Virus record (IMG/VR): IMGVR_UViG_2690316028_000008
Origin: a virus
Lineage: Duplodnaviria; Heunggongvirae; Uroviricota; Caudoviricetes
DNA: 7,242 bases
Reading direction: 5' to 3' (one strand)
In this document: piece by piece, positions 190 through 7,237 of the stretch
Numbering within the stretch: the stretch's first letter is position 1
How the letters are laid out: every line of letters starts with the position of its first letter
Notes under the pieces: generated by a model
The model's input: the letters and a program-made list of their open reading frames with translations, nothing else
What the model was told of the DNA's origin: nothing
Databases searched by the model: none
Made by a program: the position numbers and the translations under genes

Positions 190-1977
190 TTATAATTTCG
201 CATATATAGCATTAAACCAAGTTAATGTCTCGCCTTTTGCATCACTTGCAGTGAGCATTTGATAACTCATTTTTCCTGTAGCAAATTTATTTATCTTCTT
301 CTTCGCTTTACTTTCATTATAACGTGTTAAAGCAGATACCTCTGTTGATACATCTGTCGTATCATCTATGGTTATGTTTACACCAAACACCGCCTGAATA
401 GCATCAGGATGTAAATAATTTTCCATTTCCCTTTTTTCAGTCATGAATGCTATGGAACCATCATTTCTAGCATTTACTGACTTACATTCTTTTTCATACT
501 GAGGAGGGATGGCAACATCTCTATCATAGATGTGAACCTCAGGTTTATTTAGAATTTTTAAGTCATTATTATTAACCCAATCTTTAAGAGTATGTCCCCC
601 CATTGGAATGAAAACTATACGCGGATCATTTATCATATCAGGAACATTTGGAACACCTTGGTCGAGATAAATTTTACCGATATTCCTTAAAAAGTTTATA
701 TCATTAGGGCCTTCAACGCATACAAGAACAGATGCCCTACTATCAGGGTATACGCCAAGATCATTCGCTATGTTCTTTAGCACATCATCATTACCATTTT
801 TAACCTCTAAACCATCATCGAGTGTTCGGGTTATATGGCGTAGAGATTCTGTAGGTATCTTTTCCACAAGTGCAGGGACGTGGGTGGTAATCAATACTTG
901 GCATTTATCAGCATTTGCTAATTCTTGAAATGCATCAATAAGAAGTCTTTGATTAGATGGGTGTTGAGATGTTTCAGGTTCTTCAATTGCATAAATAACT
1001 CCTTTATCTGGGAATTCTTTTTGCAATCTTTCTGCTTCCGCTTTAAAAAAACTAATCAGGACTAAACGTCTAACACCACTACCACGTTTATTGATAGCTA
1101 TTCCTCTATCATCTTCCAATGTTAGCTTGAAAATATTTTCCCACTTAGGTTCCACTTTAAACTTTGGGATTAACCCGGCAGCAAGATTAGGAGATATATC
1201 ATGTAAATGTTTAATTGTGTTTTCAGCCACTTCAACTGCATGTTCTTTTACGCTTTCTTTAATGGATTCAAGTTGAATGTCAATCTTCTGCAATGCTGTT
1301 TGAACCGCTGACTTCATAGGATCCTGTACTTCTGATTCTTCATCGGTACTCGGCCTGTCTGCGCGGAATAATGCAAAGTGAGGGAGTTTGTCATATATTT
1401 TTTCACAAATAACCTTGCCCTCCTCAGCATTTAATTTAACGAAGATTTCTTTAAGCTTTAAATCTCCAATTTTCCTGTAAATTTCTTGTCTTAAACTAAC
1501 ATTGGACCTTTTATCAGCTCCATCAACACCAATAGATTCGGCAATTACTTTAAGTTCATCATTTTTTTTAGCAAGTAAAGATTTCGCGCCTTTTGCTGAG
1601 GGAGCCATACATTTAGCTTGAACGCTGCTAGATCCCTTACCTTTTGCAAATACTCTATATATTTCTAGCTTTCCATTACTATTTAATAAATATTCTTCTT
1701 TAAGGTTAGTTATAGATGTGGCATCCAAAACTATAGGTATATCAGCTCCTGAAAAGATACATCCAATTGACACGTCTTCATTTTCCACGCTATCGACACA
1801 TTTATCGGTAGCATCATATTTACATAGTTTATGTTCAAAGAAGACACCAAATGCGTCTAAGATAGTTGTTTTACCAACATCATTACGACCAACTAATGCA
1901 GTTAGTGAGTTAATGTCAATGCTATGTTCTCCATGATAGCCACGAAAGTTCTATAAGATTAGTTTTTCAAGTTTCAT
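190..1977 (-). pseudogene. OLD-family ABC-type ATPase + TOPRIM nuclease (class-1-like, stand-alone), frame interrupted by an in-frame TAG at codon 9
   Basis: The uninterrupted ORF 190..1788 (532 aa in the track, GTG-initiated) continues in the same frame upstream to ATG 1977..1975. That ATG has a GGAG Shine-Dalgarno (1987..1984) 6 nt upstream. My hand translation of 1977..1789 is MKLEKLIL*NFRGYHGEHSIDINSLTALVGRNDVGKTTILDAFGVFFEHKLCKYDATDKCVDS. The NFRG strand and Walker A (GRNDVGKT, 1890..1867) typical of OLD/ABC-type ATPases therefore lie upstream of the track ORF, separated from the ATG by TAG at 1953..1951. Downstream motifs are the ABC-signature-like KRGSGVRRL, Walker B VIYAIEEPE and H-loop ITTH. 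A C-terminal TOPRIM follows: VCVEGPND (Glu codon 714..712), IYDRD and EMENYL. No helicase or other partner gene is adjacent. Confidence 0.8.
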
Positions 1978-2317: not shown

Positions 2318-2980
2318 TTAGTAAAGTTCTCCAGTTCCCTGATCTACACGTTTATAGAAATCAGAAAAATTACATGGGTCAGATATAACTGAGTTTTTAT
2401 CACTACGAAAATCAAATTCTATTTTTTTTATAAGATCAATGGCTGGTATAGTCGAATTTAAAGGGATTTTTTTATAGTTTCTAATTCTGTGATATTCAAT
2501 TGAGTCTAAGTCTACTTCAATCGCTTTATTACCAAAATAATAAAAATGATCTGAAATCAACACGTTATTAGAGCTAGTATCTCGTTCAAGATTTGTCATG
2601 TTAAATGAACCATCAGCATTGCTATGATGAGAATCTTCTTGTATCCATTCATTGTTTTCATTTTGATGGTAGATATTATCGCCCAGAATTTGTACATGAC
2701 TACCATTTCTAGCAGGCTTTTTGAGAGAGAACCTGGTATCCTCCCAATAACCATTGAAACTAATTTTTTCTGAAACTTTCATTAATAGGATACATTTTTT
2801 TTTAGCTGATTTTAAATTGGCTCCACCAACTCCGAGTATCCAATCACCCACTTTAGCTGACTTTCTAATTCCAGGTTTGCATGTTGCCAAGGTACAACTT
2901 CCATGAAATGGATTAGGTGCAAAACCAAAGTCTCTCGTTATTGCATAAACATAAAGGTGTGAGTTGGGATCAATTAGCAT
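2318..2980 (-). CDS. Nmad2-family protein (nucleotide modification associated domain 2), biochemical function unknown
   Basis: 220-aa ORF. ATG 2980 is preceded by GGTGG and overlaps the upstream gene's stop by 7 nt. The N-terminal block YVYAITRDFGFAPNPFHGSCTLATCKPGIRKSAKVGDWILG matches the signature I recall for the Nmad2 family (GFAPNP...CTLA.CKP.IR...GDW). That family was defined by comparative genomics of DNA-modification gene neighbourhoods (Iyer, Aravind and colleagues, 2013). The assignment rests on motif memory plus context. Confidence 0.6.
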   Translation of the reverse strand: MLIDPNSHLYVYAITRDFGFAPNPFHGSCTLATCKPGIRKSAKVGDWILGVGGANLKSAKKKCILLMKVSEKISFNGYWEDTRFSLKKPARNGSHVQILGDNIYHQNENNEWIQEDSHHSNADGSFNMTNLERDTSSNNVLISDHFYYFGNKAIEVDLDSIEYHRIRNYKKIPLNSTIPAIDLIKKIEFDFRSDKNSVISDPCNFSDFYKRVDQGTGELY

Positions 2981-3465
2981 ACGACATTTCCACCTTGAAC
3001 TTTATCACGATCCGTACCATCAGGTTTTTCAAAGGAAGTTTTACCTTCTAGTGCGTTGATAATGGCATCACTTCTCCAGGCCACTATAGAGGTTGCATAC
3101 TTTTCGAGATTCTCTGGTAGTTTTACATCGCCTTTTAACCCATTTTCATATACACCTATGATTGGTTTTCCAAGTTGATGAGCTACTTGAATTTCCCAGT
3201 TTACCCAAGGTCTAGTATGTGTCTCTTTCCCGATAACAACTATAACTTGACTAGCCCACCTCATTTTCATTCTAAGTAAACGTGCAATCGTTCGGTCACT
3301 AAGTTTTTTTTCCTCAACTCGTCGCTGGTTTTCAGGTTTCATTCTAATAGAACTATTGCGTAAATGATAACCTTTTGCTGCAGCTAAACGAGAAACTCCA
3401 TCAACACTCGCGTCGTCTTTATGATGATGGCTAACAAAAACATTTTTCTTAATTTCTTTAACCAT
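2974..3465 (-). CDS. TIR-like domain protein of the ThsB / DUF1863 (MTH538-like) type
   Basis: 163-aa ORF. ATG 3465 has AGGA 7 nt upstream. KNVFVSHHHKDD and QVIVVIGKETHTRPWVNWEIQVAHQLGKPIIGVYEN align well by eye with Bacillus Thoeris ThsB as I recall it (KRVFFSFHYQD ... VTCVLIGSQTFNRRWVRYEIMKSIEKGNKIIGIHIN). The match includes the conserved Glu of the W..(W/Y)EI motif. Confidence 0.75.
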   Translation of the reverse strand: MVKEIKKNVFVSHHHKDDASVDGVSRLAAAKGYHLRNSSIRMKPENQRRVEEKKLSDRTIARLLRMKMRWASQVIVVIGKETHTRPWVNWEIQVAHQLGKPIIGVYENGLKGDVKLPENLEKYATSIVAWRSDAIINALEGKTSFEKPDGTDRDKVQGGNVVC

Positions 3466-3486
3466 TTTTAAATCCTTTGTAATTTG

Positions 3487-4518
3487 CTAATTATAAAATA
3501 ATTCTATATTATTGCTTTGATAATGGTATTTTTGTTTAGGCCTTTTATTGTTAAATTTAGTTCGGCATCTTTTATCTATCTCGCATGCACCACTATTTTC
3601 CATGTCCATTAAGGTGTAAACTCTTTCTTCTTTAGGCAGGAAATGGAATATTTCATCCATGTTCCAATTTTCTCTATACTTTTCAGCGATGTTATTTTGG
3701 TTTATAGTGAACCAGAATAAACACTCTTCGCTATTCATTCCATCTCTATTAGAAAAAATCCAATTAATTCCTCTTTCACAACCAGGACCTGAAATAACAA
3801 AGTTCAATTCTGTAAACGGAAAGTTGGGTATGTATGTCAGATCTATGAAAATTTGATATGCTAGAAAATCCCCAATCCCTGAGAATGATTTTAAATGTTC
3901 AAAAACTTCGAACTGATTTCCTGATGATTTTACACCATTAACGATTTTATCTTGGTTATAATAAACAAATTTTATCATTCTAATTACCATATCATTTTCC
4001 GGTATTCCTTCTATATTTTTTAAGTATTTTCCGAAGTTAAACTTCGGACCTCCTAAAATATAGGCTGCACTAAAAAATACGTAGCCTGGTTTTTTTAATG
4101 ATATGTTTATTGTCTTTTCTCTGATCTTTTCATTGATGTCGCGAATAGTCATTTTTGTGAAATCAAAGGGCGCATCAAGTTCATTTAATGTATCGCTTTT
4201 ATTTATTACTCTAAACAAAAATGAATTGAGTATTTTATTTTCATAAGTTAATTTATTGTTGTTTGTTATATTTTTCAATAACCATTTGGTTTCTTTGTCC
4301 CATGTTCTTTTAGTATTTACAAATTTATAGTTTCTCAATATTTTGTCGTCTGTCCAATATGGCGGAAGGTTAAGTATCTCTTTCTTGTAATATATGGATG
4401 TCCTCTCTCGTTGATGATAAAACCATTCCTTGATAACAGCTTCATTCAAGGTAGGTTTAGCGGTTTTAATTTTCATTTCTCTGACATTACAAAAAAGTTG
4501 ATCGTTTTTACTGTTCAC
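3487..4518 (-). CDS. aGPT-Pplase-like protein (alpha-glutamyl/putrescinyl thymine pyrophosphorylase family; putative DNA base hypermodification protein)
   Basis: 343-aa ORF. The start is either GTG 4518 (AAGG 9 nt upstream, overlapping the kinase stop by 11 nt) or ATG 4476 (residue 15). The block IYYKKEILNLPPYWTDDKILRNYKFVNTKRTWDKETKWL resembles the conserved N-terminal signature I recall for aGPT-Pplase proteins (PWT.D.IL...KF.N..R..D..T). The assignment rests on one motif block plus gene context. Confidence 0.55.
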   Translation of the reverse strand: MNSKNDQLFCNVREMKIKTAKPTLNEAVIKEWFYHQRERTSIYYKKEILNLPPYWTDDKILRNYKFVNTKRTWDKETKWLLKNITNNNKLTYENKILNSFLFRVINKSDTLNELDAPFDFTKMTIRDINEKIREKTINISLKKPGYVFFSAAYILGGPKFNFGKYLKNIEGIPENDMVIRMIKFVYYNQDKIVNGVKSSGNQFEVFEHLKSFSGIGDFLAYQIFIDLTYIPNFPFTELNFVISGPGCERGINWIFSNRDGMNSEECLFWFTINQNNIAEKYRENWNMDEIFHFLPKEERVYTLMDMENSGACEIDKRCRTKFNNKRPKQKYHYQSNNIELFYN

Positions 4519-5065
4519 TTAATAATACCTTTTCGAAGAAATGTTTAAAACTATCAATTCCGTTCACATTGTTGTCAAAATGATATTCTGATTTTGTTTT
4601 ATTCTCAGTGACATACTTGTCGATTTCGTATTTTTTATAATTATTATTTTCCCGTTCTATATGTACTATAGTGAACTGATTGTTCTTACACCATGCGAAT
4701 TCTTCATTTGATCTTATGTCAGTAATTATTATATTTTTATTCGTCCCTCCATTTTTTTCTAAAATTTTCAACTCTTCTGATAGCATTCTAATAAATATTT
4801 TTTCTTCAATTTTCCTTAGGCTGTCTAAGCTCAGCCATATATCTCTTGGTGAATGGCTGATAAAGTCGCCGGTAGGTAAGGTTATATTGAGTGGTAACAT
4901 TTTATTTTCAGGTGGGTAATCCTTTTCCATCCAAGGATAAATATAATTGGCCAATTTTTTGAGTTGATCGCTAAATGATAATCTAATAAATCCATAGTTG
5001 GATATCAGATAATTGGCAAGAAAGTCTTTTCCACTACCCGATATGCCCATGAATGCAATTTTCAT
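4508..5065 (-). CDS. P-loop kinase, deoxynucleoside-monophosphate-kinase-like (candidate 5-hm-dNMP kinase or 5-hmdU DNA kinase)
   Basis: 185-aa ORF. ATG 5065 sits in an ATGA overlap with the upstream TGA stop (5064..5062). The P-loop GISGSGKD is at residues 7-14. IIITDIRSNEEFAW resembles the D(V/I)R..NE motif of phage T4 gp1-type dNMP kinases. The substrate (free nucleotide or DNA-borne 5-hmdU) cannot be read from the sequence. Confidence 0.7.
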   Translation of the reverse strand: MKIAFMGISGSGKDFLANYLISNYGFIRLSFSDQLKKLANYIYPWMEKDYPPENKMLPLNITLPTGDFISHSPRDIWLSLDSLRKIEEKIFIRMLSEELKILEKNGGTNKNIIITDIRSNEEFAWCKNNQFTIVHIERENNNYKKYEIDKYVTENKTKSEYHFDNNVNGIDSFKHFFEKVLLSEQ

Positions 5066-6147
5066 AGACGGTCCTTATTAGAATTATTAAAATAATTAGA
5101 AGTTACGCTTAGATTGAAATCATTGCTTAACTTAGTTTTTAACACTATTGGTTGATTGAATCTTTCCTGGAAAATATATGATAGAGCTGCTTCTGCATAT
5201 CCCCAAAGTAAATTCCTTTCAGTTTCTACAAAGTGTTTAATAAATATTTTTTTTAGATTTTCGGTTTCCATATCTATTGTGTCTATTTTATGTTCATTTT
5301 CTGTTATTATTCTTTCAAGGAATGAAACTATATCACAGAATAATGATTTTATATTTTGTAACGATGGAGGGAATGATATTTCATCATCGTTTATCAAATC
5401 TGTCATTTGTTCTTCTTTTCTTTCGTATATTTCATTGGCTTGTCCTACTCTATCATCATATATATGAAGATTTGTTACTGATTGATGTAAGTATCCCAGT
5501 TTAATCTCGCTATCAACTTCCCTCTGTAATATTGAAAGTACTATCTCTTGAAGTAAACTAAACTCGAAAAGATTTATATTGCTCACTCCAAATATTAGAT
5601 CGCCGCTTCTTTGAACTATTTTAATGTTTAAATTTTTGTCAGGAGTGATAAAGAAATGAATTAAGTTATTACAAGGAATATCGACACTATGTTCTATGTT
5701 GTATACTTTTATGAGGCTTTCATTCGTATCTCTGTCAGGCATGTATAAGCTAATGACTGCTCTTCTTGTAAATATTCCTTCTTTTTTGAATTGTTGCACG
5801 ACATTCTCAAGTTGCCCGTGAGCGTATAGTCTTTCCCCATAAGCTGCTCGCCAAATGACACCATCATCTGAGTATTTAGGCGCTCTTGGTAAAAAAAAAT
5901 TTAGATATGGTTTAATTCTGTTGTCGCCAGCAAAAACCCATATAGCTTCAGCAAATGTGGAAAATATATTATTTTTTCGACCCGCTAAACTTAAATGCCT
6001 TGATCTAGGGTTTCGTAAGATCATACTAACATCATAAATAGTTATAGCATCCCCATTCCTTGTCGAAATACGAACTCCTTCATTAAGCACTTTTTCTAGG
6101 AGTTTCATTATTACATCGTTAATAGTTTCTCCGTAAATGACGTGCAT
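5062..6147 (-). CDS. Thymidylate synthase-fold enzyme, likely pyrimidine (dUMP or dCMP) hydroxymethylase homolog with C-terminal extension
   Basis: The track ORF starts at TTG 6153. I prefer ATG 6147, which has GAGG 8 nt upstream, giving 361 aa. Motifs are collinear with E. coli ThyA as I recall it: RNGDAI (RTGTGT), AEAIWVFAGD (ELLWFLQGD), AYGERL (VYGKQW), TRRAVISLY (SRRIIVSAW), DIPCNNLIHFFI (APCHAFFQFYV; Cys codon TGT 5673..5671), QRSGDLIFGVSNIN (QRSCDVFLGLPFNI) and LHIYDD (THLYSN). Confidence 0.85.
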   Translation of the reverse strand: MHVIYGETINDVIMKLLEKVLNEGVRISTRNGDAITIYDVSMILRNPRSRHLSLAGRKNNIFSTFAEAIWVFAGDNRIKPYLNFFLPRAPKYSDDGVIWRAAYGERLYAHGQLENVVQQFKKEGIFTRRAVISLYMPDRDTNESLIKVYNIEHSVDIPCNNLIHFFITPDKNLNIKIVQRSGDLIFGVSNINLFEFSLLQEIVLSILQREVDSEIKLGYLHQSVTNLHIYDDRVGQANEIYERKEEQMTDLINDDEISFPPSLQNIKSLFCDIVSFLERIITENEHKIDTIDMETENLKKIFIKHFVETERNLLWGYAEAALSYIFQERFNQPIVLKTKLSNDFNLSVTSNYFNNSNKDRL

Positions 6148-6369
6148 AAACAAAACCTCATGCTATAAAAACATCTTTTTAGTTGATATAGTTTATTGGG
6201 CCTAATCCAGAATTTGGTCCAGCTATGATCTGGACTAACCGGATAGCACGTTTCAATCTCTTGCCTCTAAGAACAGGCTCGAACGTGATAGCCAATTGGC
6301 TTCCCACTTAGCAAGTGAGACCTCGACCCACGCTACCGCCCTCAGTTGCATAGGCACTGCGTTTGTATG

Positions 6370-6408
6370 AACATTTACAAATGTTACTCATGTTATGGGT
6401 TTGGTCAA
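6370..6408 (-). promoter_or_regulatory. Candidate promoter with overlapping palindromic operator upstream of the five-gene operon
   Basis: Minus strand reads TTGACC (6408..6403), 16 nt, TAACAT (6386..6381). The -10 element overlaps an inverted repeat AACATTT-AC-AAATGTT (6370..6385, perfect 7-bp arms). This would give a leader of about 225 nt before ATG 6147. It is the best sigma70-like match I could find by eye in 6154..6450, but it is unverified. Confidence 0.25.
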
Positions 6409-7057
6409 TCTGGCAATAAGATAATTACGAAACTTTAGACTTATTACTTAAGTGGAGGTGGCGCGAGTCGCTAGCGAGTAAGACTGTCTCTTATATGTAC
6501 CAGAAGCACAACTGACGATGCTCCAAAATCATAGTCACCGCTGCGTAGCAAGCTGTGGCCTCTCGCTACTCCCGGGTGCCCCAGTTACAACGTTGTGGGT
6601 TGCATAAGAAATCTGTCCCGCCGGATTAGAGTGGTGGTGGATTACTGACTGTACTCTGCGTTCAATACAGAGACAGCCCGGAACAGGCAGTAATTGATGC
6701 CGGAACGAGACTATTTAAGAACAAACCGCCCCCGGTTAGCAGGATCGTCTCGGCCGGCAGGAAAGCATGCTAACACCTACATGAAGTCCCTGTCAGTGCA
6801 GGCCCCAGACTCAACACCACCAATCTACTTTTCACCACTGCGAAGTAAGGGGCGCTACGCCCGGTTATGCAGGGGCAGTTTTTCTCCTGTGCGCTTTTCG
6901 TTCCTCTATCGGCTTCCTGTTAATCGTTTCCCAACACAACCCGTCCCGCAAGGGTAAATGGCACGCATGCTGCGCCCTTGCAGGACAGAACGATGTCGGG
7001 AAAGCGAACCGTCAGGCGATACGAAGACGAAAATCACACACTGACGGAGAAAAAACG

Positions 7058-7237
7058 ATGACGATTTCCCTGCATACCACCCGGACAAGCGCCCCTAACA
7101 CCGCAGCGGCGACCAGCGTATCCCCGCTGGACCCGTCAGGCTCCTCAAAAACGAAATTTTCTAAAACCAGAACCGACATTTACCGTAAGCGTCGTCTGAG
7201 TACCGTCTGGTCCCGAATCCAGGATCCTGTAACTTAA
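7058..7237 (+). CDS. Hypothetical small protein (59 aa)
   Basis: ATG 7058 is preceded by GGAGA (7046..7050) at 7-nt spacing, followed by 59 codons and TAA 7235..7237. It falls below the 60-aa cut-off of the supplied track. Hand translation: MTISLHTTRTSAPNTAAATSVSPLDPSGSSKTKFSKTRTDIYRKRRLSTVWSRIQDPVT. The N-terminal half is Ser/Thr-rich and the C-terminal half is basic. I recognise no family, and it may not be a real gene. Confidence 0.3.
   Translation: MTISLHTTRTSAPNTAAATSVSPLDPSGSSKTKFSKTRTDIYRKRRLSTVWSRIQDPVT

Follow-up and report, generated by a model that had tools for sequence, protein, structure and literature searches.

Introduction

Operons that combine genes for phage-type nucleotide modification with genes of cellular immunity raise the question of what such a combination does and to whom it belongs. 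The locus considered here lies on the minus strand of a 7,242-nucleotide stretch of DNA (the window), in which a TS-like enzyme, a kinase and an HMUDK_hel protein are encoded together with a ThsB-type TIR protein and an Nmad2 protein. The initial annotation, made from the sequence alone, described the first three genes as a phage-type thymidine-hypermodification core in a non-phage setting, suggested a role in defence and knew of no described system of this composition.

Operon architecture

The ORF listing of the window contains five minus-strand open reading frames, all of whose products pass the Pfam cut-offs of the families proposed for them. In gene order they encode a TS-fold enzyme (5062..6147), a P-loop dNMP kinase of the T4 gp1/DNMK type (4508..5065), an HMUDK_hel protein (PF18723, gene 3; 3487..4518), a stand-alone ThsB-type TIR protein (2974..3465) and an Nmad2 protein with a predicted PUA-like fold (2318..2980), with lengths of 363, 185, 343, 163 and 220 aa. 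Their junctions were read directly from the sequence and agree with the array first described: the TS and kinase genes overlap by 4 nt (ATGA, 5062-5065), the kinase gene and gene 3 by 11 nt (GTGAACAGTAA, 4508-4518) and the TIR and Nmad2 genes by 7 nt (ATGCTAA, 2974-2980), and a 21-nt gap (3466-3486) separates gene 3 from the TIR gene. The most likely start of the TS gene is the ATG at 6147 (MHVIYG...) and not the alternative TTG at 6153, given that the RefSeq protein and its ortholog DS-4A (MHTIYG...; see below) begin likewise.

The GC content is 0.28-0.39 across the operon versus 0.50-0.55 upstream. A non-coding stretch of approximately 910 nt (6148-7057), bounded by a divergent ardC gene, precedes the operon, and its proximal part (6148..6420, minus strand, which carries no ORF) is the presumed promoter region. 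Promoter and terminator scans of the window gave matches at chance level, including one sigma-70-like match (6408-6381) from the same scan, and the single-operon reading therefore rests on the gene overlaps and on conserved synteny. Ten species-representative genomes, from Enterobacterales and Aeromonas, keep the identical five-gene order, which indicates that the arrangement is not due to chance.

Genomic context

The operon is cargo of a yersiniabactin-type ICE and not of a phage, as its non-phage setting had suggested. The surrounding ICE genes include a virB T4SS, mobC, ardC and fyuA, the operon itself adjoining ardC, mobC and the coupling-protein gene, and at least 16 of 5,426 complete E. 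coli genomes carry the locus as cargo of this kind. Phage DNA matches the window over its first 57 nt only, outside the operon.

An OLD/AriA-like gene next to the operon had been read as defence-island company. This reading did not survive, since codon 9 of the gene is an in-frame stop, a restriction endonuclease takes its place in a 92%-identical variant and it lies outside the clone in which the orthologous system was tested (PMC13092281). As a component of the system, the OLD/PARIS (AriA) neighbour was rejected, not being an intact, conserved ATPase-Toprim gene.

Identity with DS-4

The operon is orthologous to DS-4 (working ID NTTI; DefensePredictor, Science 2026; PMC13092281), an E. coli anti-phage system that is already in the literature but weakly validated. 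The two share the species, the co-directional arrangement and the gene order TS, dNMP kinase, HMUDK_hel, ThsB-TIR and Nmad2, and the DS-4 proteins measure 361/185/340/163/220 aa (PMC13092281). Global identities are 77.8% to DS-4A (TS protein), 71.2% to DS-4B (kinase), 77.6% to DS-4C (gene 3), 93.3% to DS-4D (TIR) and 80.9% to DS-4E (Nmad2), and with the same order and proteins 71-93% identical, DS-4 supersedes the claim that no such system had been described. The DefensePredictor prediction tables list the TS and Nmad2 accessions of the window itself and give DS-4A with the window's TS accession WP_032193687.1, apparently as cluster representative (PMC13092281). The window nevertheless holds another allele on another contig, and the allele that was cloned is DS-4 only.

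DS-4 was cloned with its native upstream region and scored as defensive, with smaller lambda plaques and approximately 8.5-fold lower plating (-log EOP 0.93); lambda is the only phage with a recorded effect, and the paper gives no mechanism (PMC13092281). This phenotype favours the defence role first suggested for the operon and says nothing on the production of modified nucleotides. It is a weak phenotype, recorded on one phage and for the ortholog rather than the window allele.

The nucleotide-modifying genes

That the first three genes have phage affinities was borne out, with phage homologues found for the TS protein, the kinase and HMUDK_hel. The TS protein matches Pfam Thymidylat_synt (1e-16) and phrog_3676 (7e-78) and is 30% identical to ViI thyA over its full length (E 1e-43), and among solved relatives the CMP hydroxymethylase MilA is the best match (2e-14), true TS following at 1e-6. 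Residues Cys159, Arg180, Ser181, Asp183, Asn192, His228 and Tyr230 are conserved in 25/25 homologs, and at the position of Asn192, TS has its uracil-specifying Asn and MilA has Asp. The enzyme is probably a dUMP 5-hydroxymethylase, which sequence alone cannot tell from a methyl-transferring TS.

The kinase belongs to Pfam DNMK (3e-10) and phrog_139 (3e-30). Its phage homologs are ViI-type dnk genes adjoining thyA and dUTPase genes, and the 4-nt overlap of the TS and kinase genes is that of thyA-dnk in ViI. Ties to gene 3 are also found, as the kinase is 49% identical to a 185-aa ORF overlapping an HMUDK_hel gene in a phage contig, and the two proteins are fused in three other loci from other taxa. 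The kinase has no match among the P-loop 5-HMUDK families, its likeness to Ab18 ORF12 being confined to the P-loop; the P-loop 5-hmdU DNA kinases of the ViI gp67/Ab18 ORF12 type are a separate protein, and no window protein matches PF18748 (HMUDK_HMUD1) or PF18747 (HMUD2) at E up to 1. The TS, kinase and HMUDK_hel assignments hold, but as a hydroxymethyl-substituting core the set is incomplete, given that the window lacks a PF18748/PF18747 kinase.

Gene 3 matches Pfam HMUDK_hel (PF18723, 4e-53), which we take to be the old clade-1 aGPT-Pplase. The earlier aGPT-Pplase-like call holds to that extent and not for the proven clade-2 amino-acid:DNA transferase (ADDT, PF18724), which was not detected in the window and to which gene 3 is related at the fold level only. 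The predicted model has a fold of the helix-hairpin-helix glycosylase superfamily, related to the amino-acid:DNA transferases; its closest structure is the 5-PmdU glycinyltransferase of PaMx11, the second-best neighbour is DUF2419, annotated as a queuine salvage enzyme in the PDB, and HhH-GPD DNA glycosylases are clear structural neighbours. In the homolog alignment a Cys-Glu is invariant. Statistical support for aligning this Cys with the catalytic Cys of ADDT is low (E 0.038, probability 1.4%), and a Glu further upstream is Gln in most relatives. M6 gp55, a probable phage counterpart of gene 3 by synteny alone, is dispensable in vitro (PMC8989533).

The TIR-Nmad2 core

The TIR protein matches Pfam ThsB_TIR (PF08937, 4e-20) and, over its full length, the PADLOC ThsB model PDLC00418 (4e-73), in keeping with its original assignment to the ThsB type. 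Its motif WVNWEI aligns with WVRYEI of BcThsB (6lhy), and Glu91, which aligns with the BcThsB Glu, is conserved in 80/80 loci; mean identity across phyla is 62%. To judge from these alignments, the protein is a canonical ThsB that is catalytically intact. Nmad2 (Pfam Nmad2, 3e-64) is modelled with moderate confidence (pLDDT 76) as a YTH/EVE/ASCH (PUA-like) reader fold, in which Trp47, Trp79 and Tyr104 never vary and Trp112 hardly does. Its invariant polar residues are numerous (Cys29, Cys34, His118 and His119) and suggest an enzyme or a metal site rather than a passive reader, and the model is that of a probable modified-base binder or enzyme.

What is new here is the constancy of this pair: a ThsB-type TIR gene lies directly upstream of Nmad2 in all 80 loci compared, and relatives of the core occur in at least 562 species, represented by assemblies from many phyla. 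The pairing is not listed in the accessible parts of the text and supplements of the Sorek-lab TIR survey, and viral contigs hardly ever carry the core. Its partners are swappable, comprising TS, a Tmk or dNMP kinase and a dCTP deaminase with HMUDK_hel, or MazG_C and UDG with TIR-SLOG. HMUDK_hel is found in 35/80 loci and a UDG-superfamily protein in 19/80, none of which are shared, and in one core locus their place is taken by an upstream Fpg/Nei glycosylase. Relatives outside the enterobacteria also encode a dCTP-deaminase-like protein and a kinase of the Tmk type, and approximately 10 of the 80 loci have no recognised nucleotide module.

Just outside the window lies a convergent cluster containing a TIR_2 and SLOG-cluster2 pair, homologs of which are present in 45/80 core loci. 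It matches a TIR-SLOG gene that is co-operonic with the core elsewhere, this fused form being found in other phyla, and ThsA, the effector of Thoeris I, carries a SLOG domain of the same cluster2 type. At other DS-4-type loci, no TIR/SLOG cluster was found within the approximately 3-9 kb of available DNA on the downstream side, the side on which the ICE has it. DS-4 was scored as defensive without such a cluster.

Comparison with known systems

Thoeris shares with the locus a ThsB-family TIR with the catalytic Glu and, in many relatives and adjoining the window, additional ThsB-TIRs with a putative TIR_2/SLOG-cluster2 effector. However, Pfam and PADLOC found no ThsA-type effector (SIR2-SLOG or Macro) in the operon or the window, the obligate partner of the TIR is Nmad2, which is no described Thoeris component, and the nucleotide-modifying genes have no Thoeris counterpart. 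The thymidine hypermodification clusters of phage (ViI, M6, PaMx11; PMC8989533) have in common with the operon a TS-fold enzyme, in the window a putative dUMP hydroxymethylase, and a dNMP kinase, and Maynard_81 and Ab18 ORF13 a PF18723 protein in the gene order kinase then PF18723. These clusters differ in that the window lacks a PF18748/PF18747 kinase, a PF18724 transferase and any PLP, radical-SAM or FAD tailoring enzyme, as well as a polymerase and, by profile search, dUTPase and MazG, and in that its context is cellular. TIR and Nmad2 genes were not found next to hypermodification genes in the phage regions examined.

Modification-dependent readers (YTH-type McrB-N, EVE-HNH proteins such as VcaM4I, and PD-T4-3) carry a PUA-like module, predicted also for Nmad2, which flips out and reads modified bases. 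In contrast to these, Nmad2 has no attached nuclease and is partnered by a TIR, and whereas such readers target a base made by the phage, the window system apparently makes the modified base itself. Profile searches detected no nuclease family in any of the five operon proteins; of the hallmarks of type IV restriction, the locus has the PUA-like reader domain and not the coupled nuclease or GTPase-nuclease. Nucleotide-pool defence (dCTP deaminase, dGTPase) is approached by relatives that encode a dCTP-deaminase-like protein beside the TS-like gene, and diversion of dUMP would reduce the dTTP supply, but the window has no deaminase and depletion alone would leave HMUDK_hel, TIR and Nmad2 unexplained. 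The MilA/MilB nucleoside-antibiotic pathways offer the nearest TS relative, MilA, and a companion protein with an N-glycosidase-related fold. They differ in the cytosine-specifying Asp of MilA, which is Asn in the window TS, and in the TIR, which by its sequence is a canonical ThsB and not a MilB-type hydrolase.

Mechanistic interpretation

The reading we prefer is that of a DS-4 ortholog on an ICE, made up of a phage-type nucleotide part and a TIR/Nmad2 core, which probably links host-made 5-hydroxymethyl-dU nucleotides to a pair of TIR and modified-base reader; to this working model as a whole we give an even chance. The nucleotide part would divert pyrimidine deoxynucleotides, the TS-fold enzyme converting dUMP to 5-hmdUMP and the dNMP kinase converting this to the diphosphate, after which host NDP kinase and polymerases would place 5-hmdU in replicating DNA. 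Such steps would follow the canonical route of dUMP hydroxymethylase, dNMP kinase, host kinase and polymerase (PMC8989533). HMUDK_hel and the kinase may act as one unit, in which HMUDK_hel probably works on 5-substituted uracil through its invariant Cys-Glu. The second part, the invariant cellular core of ThsB-type TIR and Nmad2, a predicted modified-base reader, would respond when infection leads to a modified pyrimidine in DNA or the nucleotide pool and Nmad2 binds it; the TIR would then use up NAD+, yielding a signal or starving the cell. The adjacent TIR_2/SLOG cluster on the ICE probably acts downstream of the TIR, much as in Thoeris. It counts against the working model that it gives no account of how host DNA is spared or how infection is sensed. 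Further points against it are the weak phenotype of the ortholog on a single phage, the moderate confidence of the Nmad2 model and its invariant polar residues, the weak Cys alignment of gene 3, the lack of a TIR/SLOG cluster in the DNA compared at other DS-4-type loci and the core loci with no recognised nucleotide module.

The nucleotide module could instead be the effector, draining dUMP (and dCTP in relatives with a dCTP deaminase) and loading 5-hmdU into replicating phage DNA, where the glycosylase-fold protein would excise or derivatise the base and break the DNA, as in uracil incorporation followed by UNG excision, with the TIR-Nmad2 pair only regulating or triggering. The mutual exclusion of HMUDK_hel and UDG-superfamily proteins is as expected for alternative glycosylase-fold partners, and the upstream Fpg/Nei gene, the dCTP-deaminase-like genes beside TS and HMUDK_hel in several phyla and the structural proximity of HhH-GPD DNA glycosylases to gene 3 point the same way. 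We consider this mechanism unlikely, given that the closest structure to gene 3 is a transferase and not a glycosylase, that its invariant residues are Cys-Glu and not the glycosylase Asp/Lys, and that what stays constant across the family is the TIR-Nmad2 pair, even where no nucleotide module is recognised. A partial conversion of ICE or cell thymidine to 5-hmdU or a derivative, policed by Nmad2 and TIR, would protect transferred DNA from restriction or mark self DNA, in line with the first option of the initial annotation. The adjoining ardC, mobC and coupling-protein genes fit this proposal, as does the homology of the first three genes to phage genes that modify DNA against host nucleases, and a phage dUMP hydroxymethylase and its kinase are reportedly sufficient to load 5-hmU into E. 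coli DNA. It is rendered rather improbable by the lack of a P-loop 5-HMUDK, clade-2 transferase, tailoring enzyme and dTTP-clearing enzyme in the operon, by the breadth of the core, with its swappable modules, across species and phyla, and by the cloned ortholog, which cut phage plating in a strain that lacks this element.

The enzymes might also act on free nucleotides, giving 5-hmU or a 5-hmU-ribosyl/ADPR conjugate as signal or antimetabolite, with the TIR as an N-glycosidase or base-exchange enzyme by analogy to MilA/MilB and Nmad2 binding the product. Among solved structures the TS-like protein is closest to MilA, of mildiomycin biosynthesis, the second structural neighbour of gene 3 (DUF2419) presumably acts on a free nucleotide and not on DNA, and the kinases, DNMK or Tmk, belong to the nucleotide-monophosphate type. 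A faint TIR match to nucleoside 2-deoxyribosyltransferase (E 0.15) would agree with this but is non-significant, the TIR has the make-up of a canonical ThsB, NADase Glu included, the core is associated with three unrelated DNA-glycosylase folds, and the usual targets of PUA-like domains in defence systems are bases in nucleic acid, all of which leaves the proposal quite improbable. A further reading, in which the operon is an inert, functionless relic of a phage nucleotide-metabolism module, would fit its rarity in E. coli, the weak phenotype of the ortholog and the damaged neighbouring ATPase gene. This last explanation is very hard to credit, as the core is almost confined to non-viral contigs and the five ORFs are intact, with overlaps and catalytic residues kept across genera at 45-100% identity.

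Identity with DS-4

The five minus-strand genes at 2318-6153 are very probably an allele of DS-4 (working ID NTTI), an E. coli anti-phage system reported by the DefensePredictor study (Science 2026, PMC13092281; bioRxiv January 2025). In that study, 94 predicted E. coli transcription units were cloned with their native promoters on a low-copy plasmid and assayed in MG1655 with 24 phages, and DS-4 is one of the validated units, from NZ_QOYB01000018.1:32107-36002 (PMC13092281). Its genes are annotated as thymidylate synthase, as 'adenylate kinase', as 'putative DNA base hypermodification protein' (HMUDK_hel), as TIR (DefenseFinder ThsB_Global) and as Nmad2, and the Fig. 3C legend names the domains TS, dNMPk, 5hmdUk and NMAD (PMC13092281). 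Gene order is the same in the window, whose proteins are 77.8, 71.2, 77.6, 93.3 and 80.9% identical to DS-4A-E, respectively. The window's own TS (WP_032193687.1) and Nmad2 (WP_023143489.1) proteins are also tabulated as predicted defence genes (PMC13092281).

The initial annotation was partly supported: the composition it proposed and the placing of the locus outside phage genomes stood, and its statement that no such system had been described is superseded, as DS-4 has been cloned and scored defensive. The composition is thus already in the literature, and experiments on an ortholog lend a defence role weak support. This comes from the single DS-4 row of Table S7, which records smaller lambda plaques and a -log EOP of 0.93, or about 8.5-fold (PMC13092281). 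The main text of that paper does not name DS-4 and says nothing on its mechanism (PMC13092281), and no published follow-up was found in the literature searched. The operon is not new for cataloguing; what remains of interest is its mechanism.

Operon architecture

The five minus-strand ORFs first annotated are present: a TS-like gene (gene 1; 5062..6147), a dNMP kinase gene (gene 2; 4508..5065), the HMUDK_hel gene (gene 3; 3487..4518), a ThsB-type TIR gene (2974..3465) and an Nmad2 gene (2318..2980). Their family assignments hold, with matches to Thymidylat_synt, DNMK, HMUDK_hel, ThsB_TIR and Nmad2 above curated Pfam cut-offs. Read from the sequence, the TS-like stop and kinase start share ATGA (5062-5065), the kinase gene and gene 3 overlap by GTGAACAGTAA (4508-4518), and the TIR and Nmad2 genes overlap by ATGCTAA (2974-2980); a 21-nt spacer (3466-3486) separates gene 3 from the TIR gene. 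ATG 6147 (MHVIYG...), and not TTG 6153, is the most likely start codon of the TS gene, because RefSeq and DS-4A begin likewise. GC content is low across the operon (0.28-0.39), as had been noted, and climbs to 0.50-0.55 upstream.

Promoter and terminator pattern scans performed no better than chance, and an Rfam search gave no match. The single-operon reading therefore rests on the gene overlaps and on synteny kept in other genomes, both of which back it. Searches of the PADLOC, NCBIfam and PHROG libraries returned no named system and ThsB-type matches for the TIR only; PHROG held no family for Nmad2.

An invariant TIR-Nmad2 core with interchangeable partners

Nmad2 belongs to a large, strongly conserved family, with 7,082 matches in one search. 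The E. coli protein is ~65% identical to those of Thiocapsa, Rhizobium and Nitrospirales, and relatives occur in at least 562 species-representative genomes and in 5 of 2.9 million viral contigs. In the neighbourhood comparison proposed at the outset, all 80 loci retrieved have a small ThsB-type TIR gene immediately upstream of Nmad2 and on its strand, with a mean TIR identity of 62% and the catalytic Glu91 kept throughout (80/80). Among the loci checked, the 7-nt TIR/Nmad2 overlap of the window recurs in Thiocapsa, Nitrospirales and Cellvibrio. The TIR-Nmad2 pair is an invariant core across many phyla. Nmad2 has a predicted reader fold, in a structure model of moderate confidence only. Thymidylate, Nmad2 and HMUDK are mentioned neither in the main text of the E. 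coli TIR survey (PMC11350192) nor in the main text and supplements of the Sorek-lab TIR preprint.

Pairs with 52-58% identity to the E. coli Nmad2 were also seen in a Promethearchaeota MAG (L047), a Bifidobacteriaceae MAG (L068) and Nostoc (L070), which implies very wide horizontal spread or, for the archaeal MAG, binning contamination.

Around this core, the nucleotide modules are interchangeable. The DS-4 architecture (TS, DNMK kinase and HMUDK_hel) occurs in 10 of the 80 loci, all from Enterobacterales or Aeromonas. TS with HMUDK_hel accounts for 12 loci, HMUDK_hel with MazG_C for nine and MazG_C with UDG for 19, each with or without TIR-SLOG; a recognised partner is absent from 10, some of them on truncated contigs. 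MazG_C is fused to a MazG domain in L065, the only case annotated. The MazG_C/NMAD/UDG type matches a predicted, unvalidated system in Fig. 6F of the DefensePredictor study (PMC13092281). TS is always accompanied by HMUDK_hel, save on one truncated contig, and no locus carries both a UDG-superfamily protein (19 loci) and HMUDK_hel (35 loci; n = 80). In their stead, an Fpg/Nei glycosylase gene lies upstream of the core in one locus (L083, 6685-7479); thus three unrelated DNA-glycosylase folds, including UDG and HMUDK_hel, are tied to the same core.

In several TS and HMUDK_hel loci, Pfam annotation also identified a dCTP-deaminase-like protein and a kinase of the Tmk type, the kinase being either separate or joined to HMUDK_hel. 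The dCTP-deaminase-like genes (PF22769) stand with TS-like and HMUDK_hel genes in four non-enterobacterial loci (L037, 5723-6493; L057, 1216-2037; L068, 4086-4814; L079, 8567-9286) and would close the path that leads from dCTP, by way of dU nucleotides, to 5-hmdU nucleotides. A gene of this kind is missing from the E. coli operon. A conserved protein of ~172 aa with the motif ...D.E.A/CW.LY.E..TRV... and no Pfam match (L068, 8653-9168; L079, 4750-5271) flanks the TIR-Nmad2 and TS/HMUDK_hel genes in two unrelated genomes and may be a further system component.

The predicted pyrimidine module

Among relatives of solved structure, the CMP 5-hydroxymethylase MilA matches the TS-like protein best (2e-14), compared with 1e-6 for true thymidylate synthases and 1e-4 for T4 dCMP hydroxymethylase. 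The TS-like protein also matches phrog_3676 (7e-78), and its alignment with phage ViI thyA spans the whole protein, C-terminal extension included (30% identity, E 1e-43). The catalytic Cys159, the RS-D phosphate/base motif, His228 and Tyr230 are kept in all 25 TS homologs that lie beside Nmad2, as is Asn192 (25/25), which aligns with the uracil-specifying Asn of thymidylate synthases and is Asp in MilA. These residues argue for a competent, uracil-directed C5 one-carbon transferase, and the relatives of the protein suggest that it hydroxymethylates rather than methylates.

The kinase encoded by gene 2 is of the DNMK type (T4 gp1-like). It is homologous to the products of the dnk genes in ViI-like phages, located between thyA and the dUTPase gene, where the thyA-dnk overlap is 4 nt, as in the operon. 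In the established phage route, a dUMP hydroxymethylase is followed by a dNMP kinase, the host NDP kinase and the polymerase (PMC8989533).

Gene 3 matches PF18723 (HMUDK_hel) alone, which Pfam separates from PF18724 (ADDT, a proven amino-acid:DNA transferase formerly named aGPT-Pplase2) and from the P-loop 5-hmdU DNA kinases PF18748 and PF18747; a Pfam search of the window found no member of these three families. We take PF18723 to be 'aGPT-Pplase clade 1', judging from the adjacent Pfam accession numbers and the older RefSeq name for HMUDK_hel, 'putative DNA base hypermodification protein'. Membership of gene 3 in the ADDT (clade-2) family is unsupported by sequence, a common fold being all that is shared. 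Genes 2 and 3 as a split P-loop 5-hmdU DNA kinase were likewise rejected, given that gene 2 is DNMK-type and has only the P-loop in common with Ab18 ORF12. The biochemically proven kinase of ViI, gp67, is a separate 220-aa protein of the PF18748 type.

Homologs of gene 3 are present in ViI-like and M6/Ab18-like phages. M6 gp55 was dispensable in the reconstituted reaction (PMC8989533); this protein, whose gene follows that of the kinase gp54, is equated with Ab18 ORF13 by synteny alone. One phage contig that bears a complete hypermodification cluster has overlapping counterparts of both genes, a 185-aa ORF with 49% identity to gene 2 and a second gene with 49% identity to gene 3. HMUDK_hel carries a fused N-terminal thymidylate-kinase (Tmk-type) domain in three Nmad2 loci (L053, 12609-14321; L068, 4592-6487; L077, 5704-7452), and other loci have a separate Tmk-type gene. 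The kinase and HMUDK_hel thus appear to behave as one unit. A metagenomic HMUDK_hel homolog of 593 aa (P0169) is fused to an N6/N4 DNA methylase domain (PF01555).

A neighbouring TIR/SLOG cluster

Beyond the ATPase gene and outside the window, both ICE variants carry a five-gene cluster convergent with the operon (L001, 15986-19889; L002, 14489-18392). It encodes a hypothetical protein, whose gene is a DefensePredictor hit, two ThsB-TIR proteins of 203 and 170 aa, a TIR_2 protein of 397 aa and a SLOG-cluster2 protein of 272 aa, and resembles so-called type III Thoeris. In many phyla, Nmad2 is followed within its operon by a ~670-aa TIR-SLOG fusion, whose N-terminal half is homologous to the TIR_2 protein and whose C-terminal half is homologous to the SLOG protein; the 170-aa ThsB-TIR matches the extra 181-aa TIR of TIR-SLOG-bearing loci. 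TIR_2/SLOG2 homologs occur in 45 of the 80 Nmad2 loci, and the SLOG family found in ThsA, the effector of Thoeris I, is likewise SLOG cluster2. The fusion homology, the co-operonic TIR-SLOG elsewhere and the ThsA-type SLOG suggest a Thoeris-like arrangement of signal and effector, in which the ICE would carry both halves of one system and the cluster is a candidate for the missing half. However, DS-4 was scored defensive without it, and other DS-4-type loci have no TIR/SLOG cluster within about 3-9 kb downstream of Nmad2, the side on which it lies in the ICE. The lack of this cluster in the cloned DS-4 might account for how weak its phenotype was.

Possible mechanisms

Three of the operon genes come from a pathway that hides phage DNA from host nucleases; here they are host-side and joined to a TIR and a predicted modified-base reader. 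In the working model, the module would produce 5-hmdUMP and 5-hmdUDP, so that 5-hmdU would appear either in the pool or in replicating DNA. HMUDK_hel and the kinase might act on the 5-substituted uracil via the HMUDK_hel Cys, Nmad2 would bind the modified pyrimidine, and the TIR would convert this binding into NAD+-based signalling or depletion. As a whole the model is tentative and somewhat doubtful. If the cell truly makes 5-hmdU nucleotides for immunity, defence via a host-made non-canonical base would be an unusual principle.

There are four rival readings. Damage from incorporation and excision could itself be the effector, with the TIR-Nmad2 pair only regulating or triggering it; that this pair is the invariant part counts against the reading. 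Self-marking or anti-restriction on behalf of the ICE would suit the cargo position of the operon, and has the lambda phenotype of the plasmid-borne ortholog against it. The similarity of gene 1 to MilA would fit a pathway like that of MilA/MilB, acting on free nucleotides or small molecules, and the weak effect on lambda would fit an inert remnant, with the kept catalytic residues speaking against the latter. The sparing of host DNA and the sensing of infection are accounted for by none of these readings.

A wider reading, which we regard as unlikely at present, is that ThsB-TIR and Nmad2 form the core of a large, unnamed Thoeris-like immune family (at least 562 species), in which a PUA-like protein reads or processes an unusual, cell-made pyrimidine in DNA or as a nucleotide and drives TIR chemistry. 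The pyrimidine would be 5-hmdU here and of the uracil type in the MazG_C/UDG variants, and the TIR might make an ADPR signal linked to a pyrimidine, ADP-ribosylate the modified base or deplete NAD+ via a TIR-SLOG effector. If true, defence would operate with host-made modified nucleotides borrowed from phage hypermodification pathways. The main leads are the TIR-Nmad2 core, the kinase-HMUDK_hel unit, the predicted Nmad2 reader fold and the adjacent TIR/SLOG cluster.

Genomic context

The initial placing of the locus outside any phage context was correct, as the operon is ICE cargo. Twelve complete E. coli genomes contain a chromosomal segment with 99.9% identity to the window, and four further complete E. 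coli genomes carry the five genes at about 92.6-93.2% identity. Phage and plasmid sequence searches gave no match to the operon; a phage origin was rejected on the ICE surroundings and on a phage DNA match confined to 57 nt at the window edge. In both ICE variants (L001 and L002), the operon occupies the cargo region near tRNA-Asn genes, in the order fyuA, virB type IV secretion system, coupling protein, mobC, ardC and operon, an arrangement that we take to be that of the yersiniabactin HPI/ICEKp family. The nearest Nmad2 cluster (95% identity, 258 members) bears the name of Klebsiella pneumoniae. The locus would add defence cargo to yersiniabactin-type ICEs circulating in E. coli and Klebsiella.

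An OLD/AriA-like ATPase-Toprim gene (190-1977, minus strand) adjoins the operon. It reads MKLEKLIL*NFRGY..., with an in-frame stop at codon 9 (1951-1953), and the RefSeq CDS of 574 aa uses a non-standard start codon at 1914, just before Walker A; the gene probably either has been disabled or has lost its N-terminal part. The region is 99.9% identical between the window and the 12 matching genomes, a value for the region as a whole and not for the stop codon genome by genome. Membership of this gene in the system was rejected, given the codon-9 stop, its replacement by a restriction endonuclease in the 92%-identical ICE variant and its position outside the DS-4 clone.

The GC-rich right end of the window (6577-7182) comprises the ardC upstream region and 5' end and is 80-92% identical to the ardC regions that many plasmids of Klebsiella, Citrobacter, Yersinia and Serratia carry. 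This places the operon next to the ICE's conserved module for transfer and anti-restriction. At the left edge, positions 1-57 match a short Salmonella phage record at 93%. One E. coli genome has an IS3 element where the left end of its match falls, so these positions may be the end of a repeated element. Some part of the window is matched by thousands of E. coli records.
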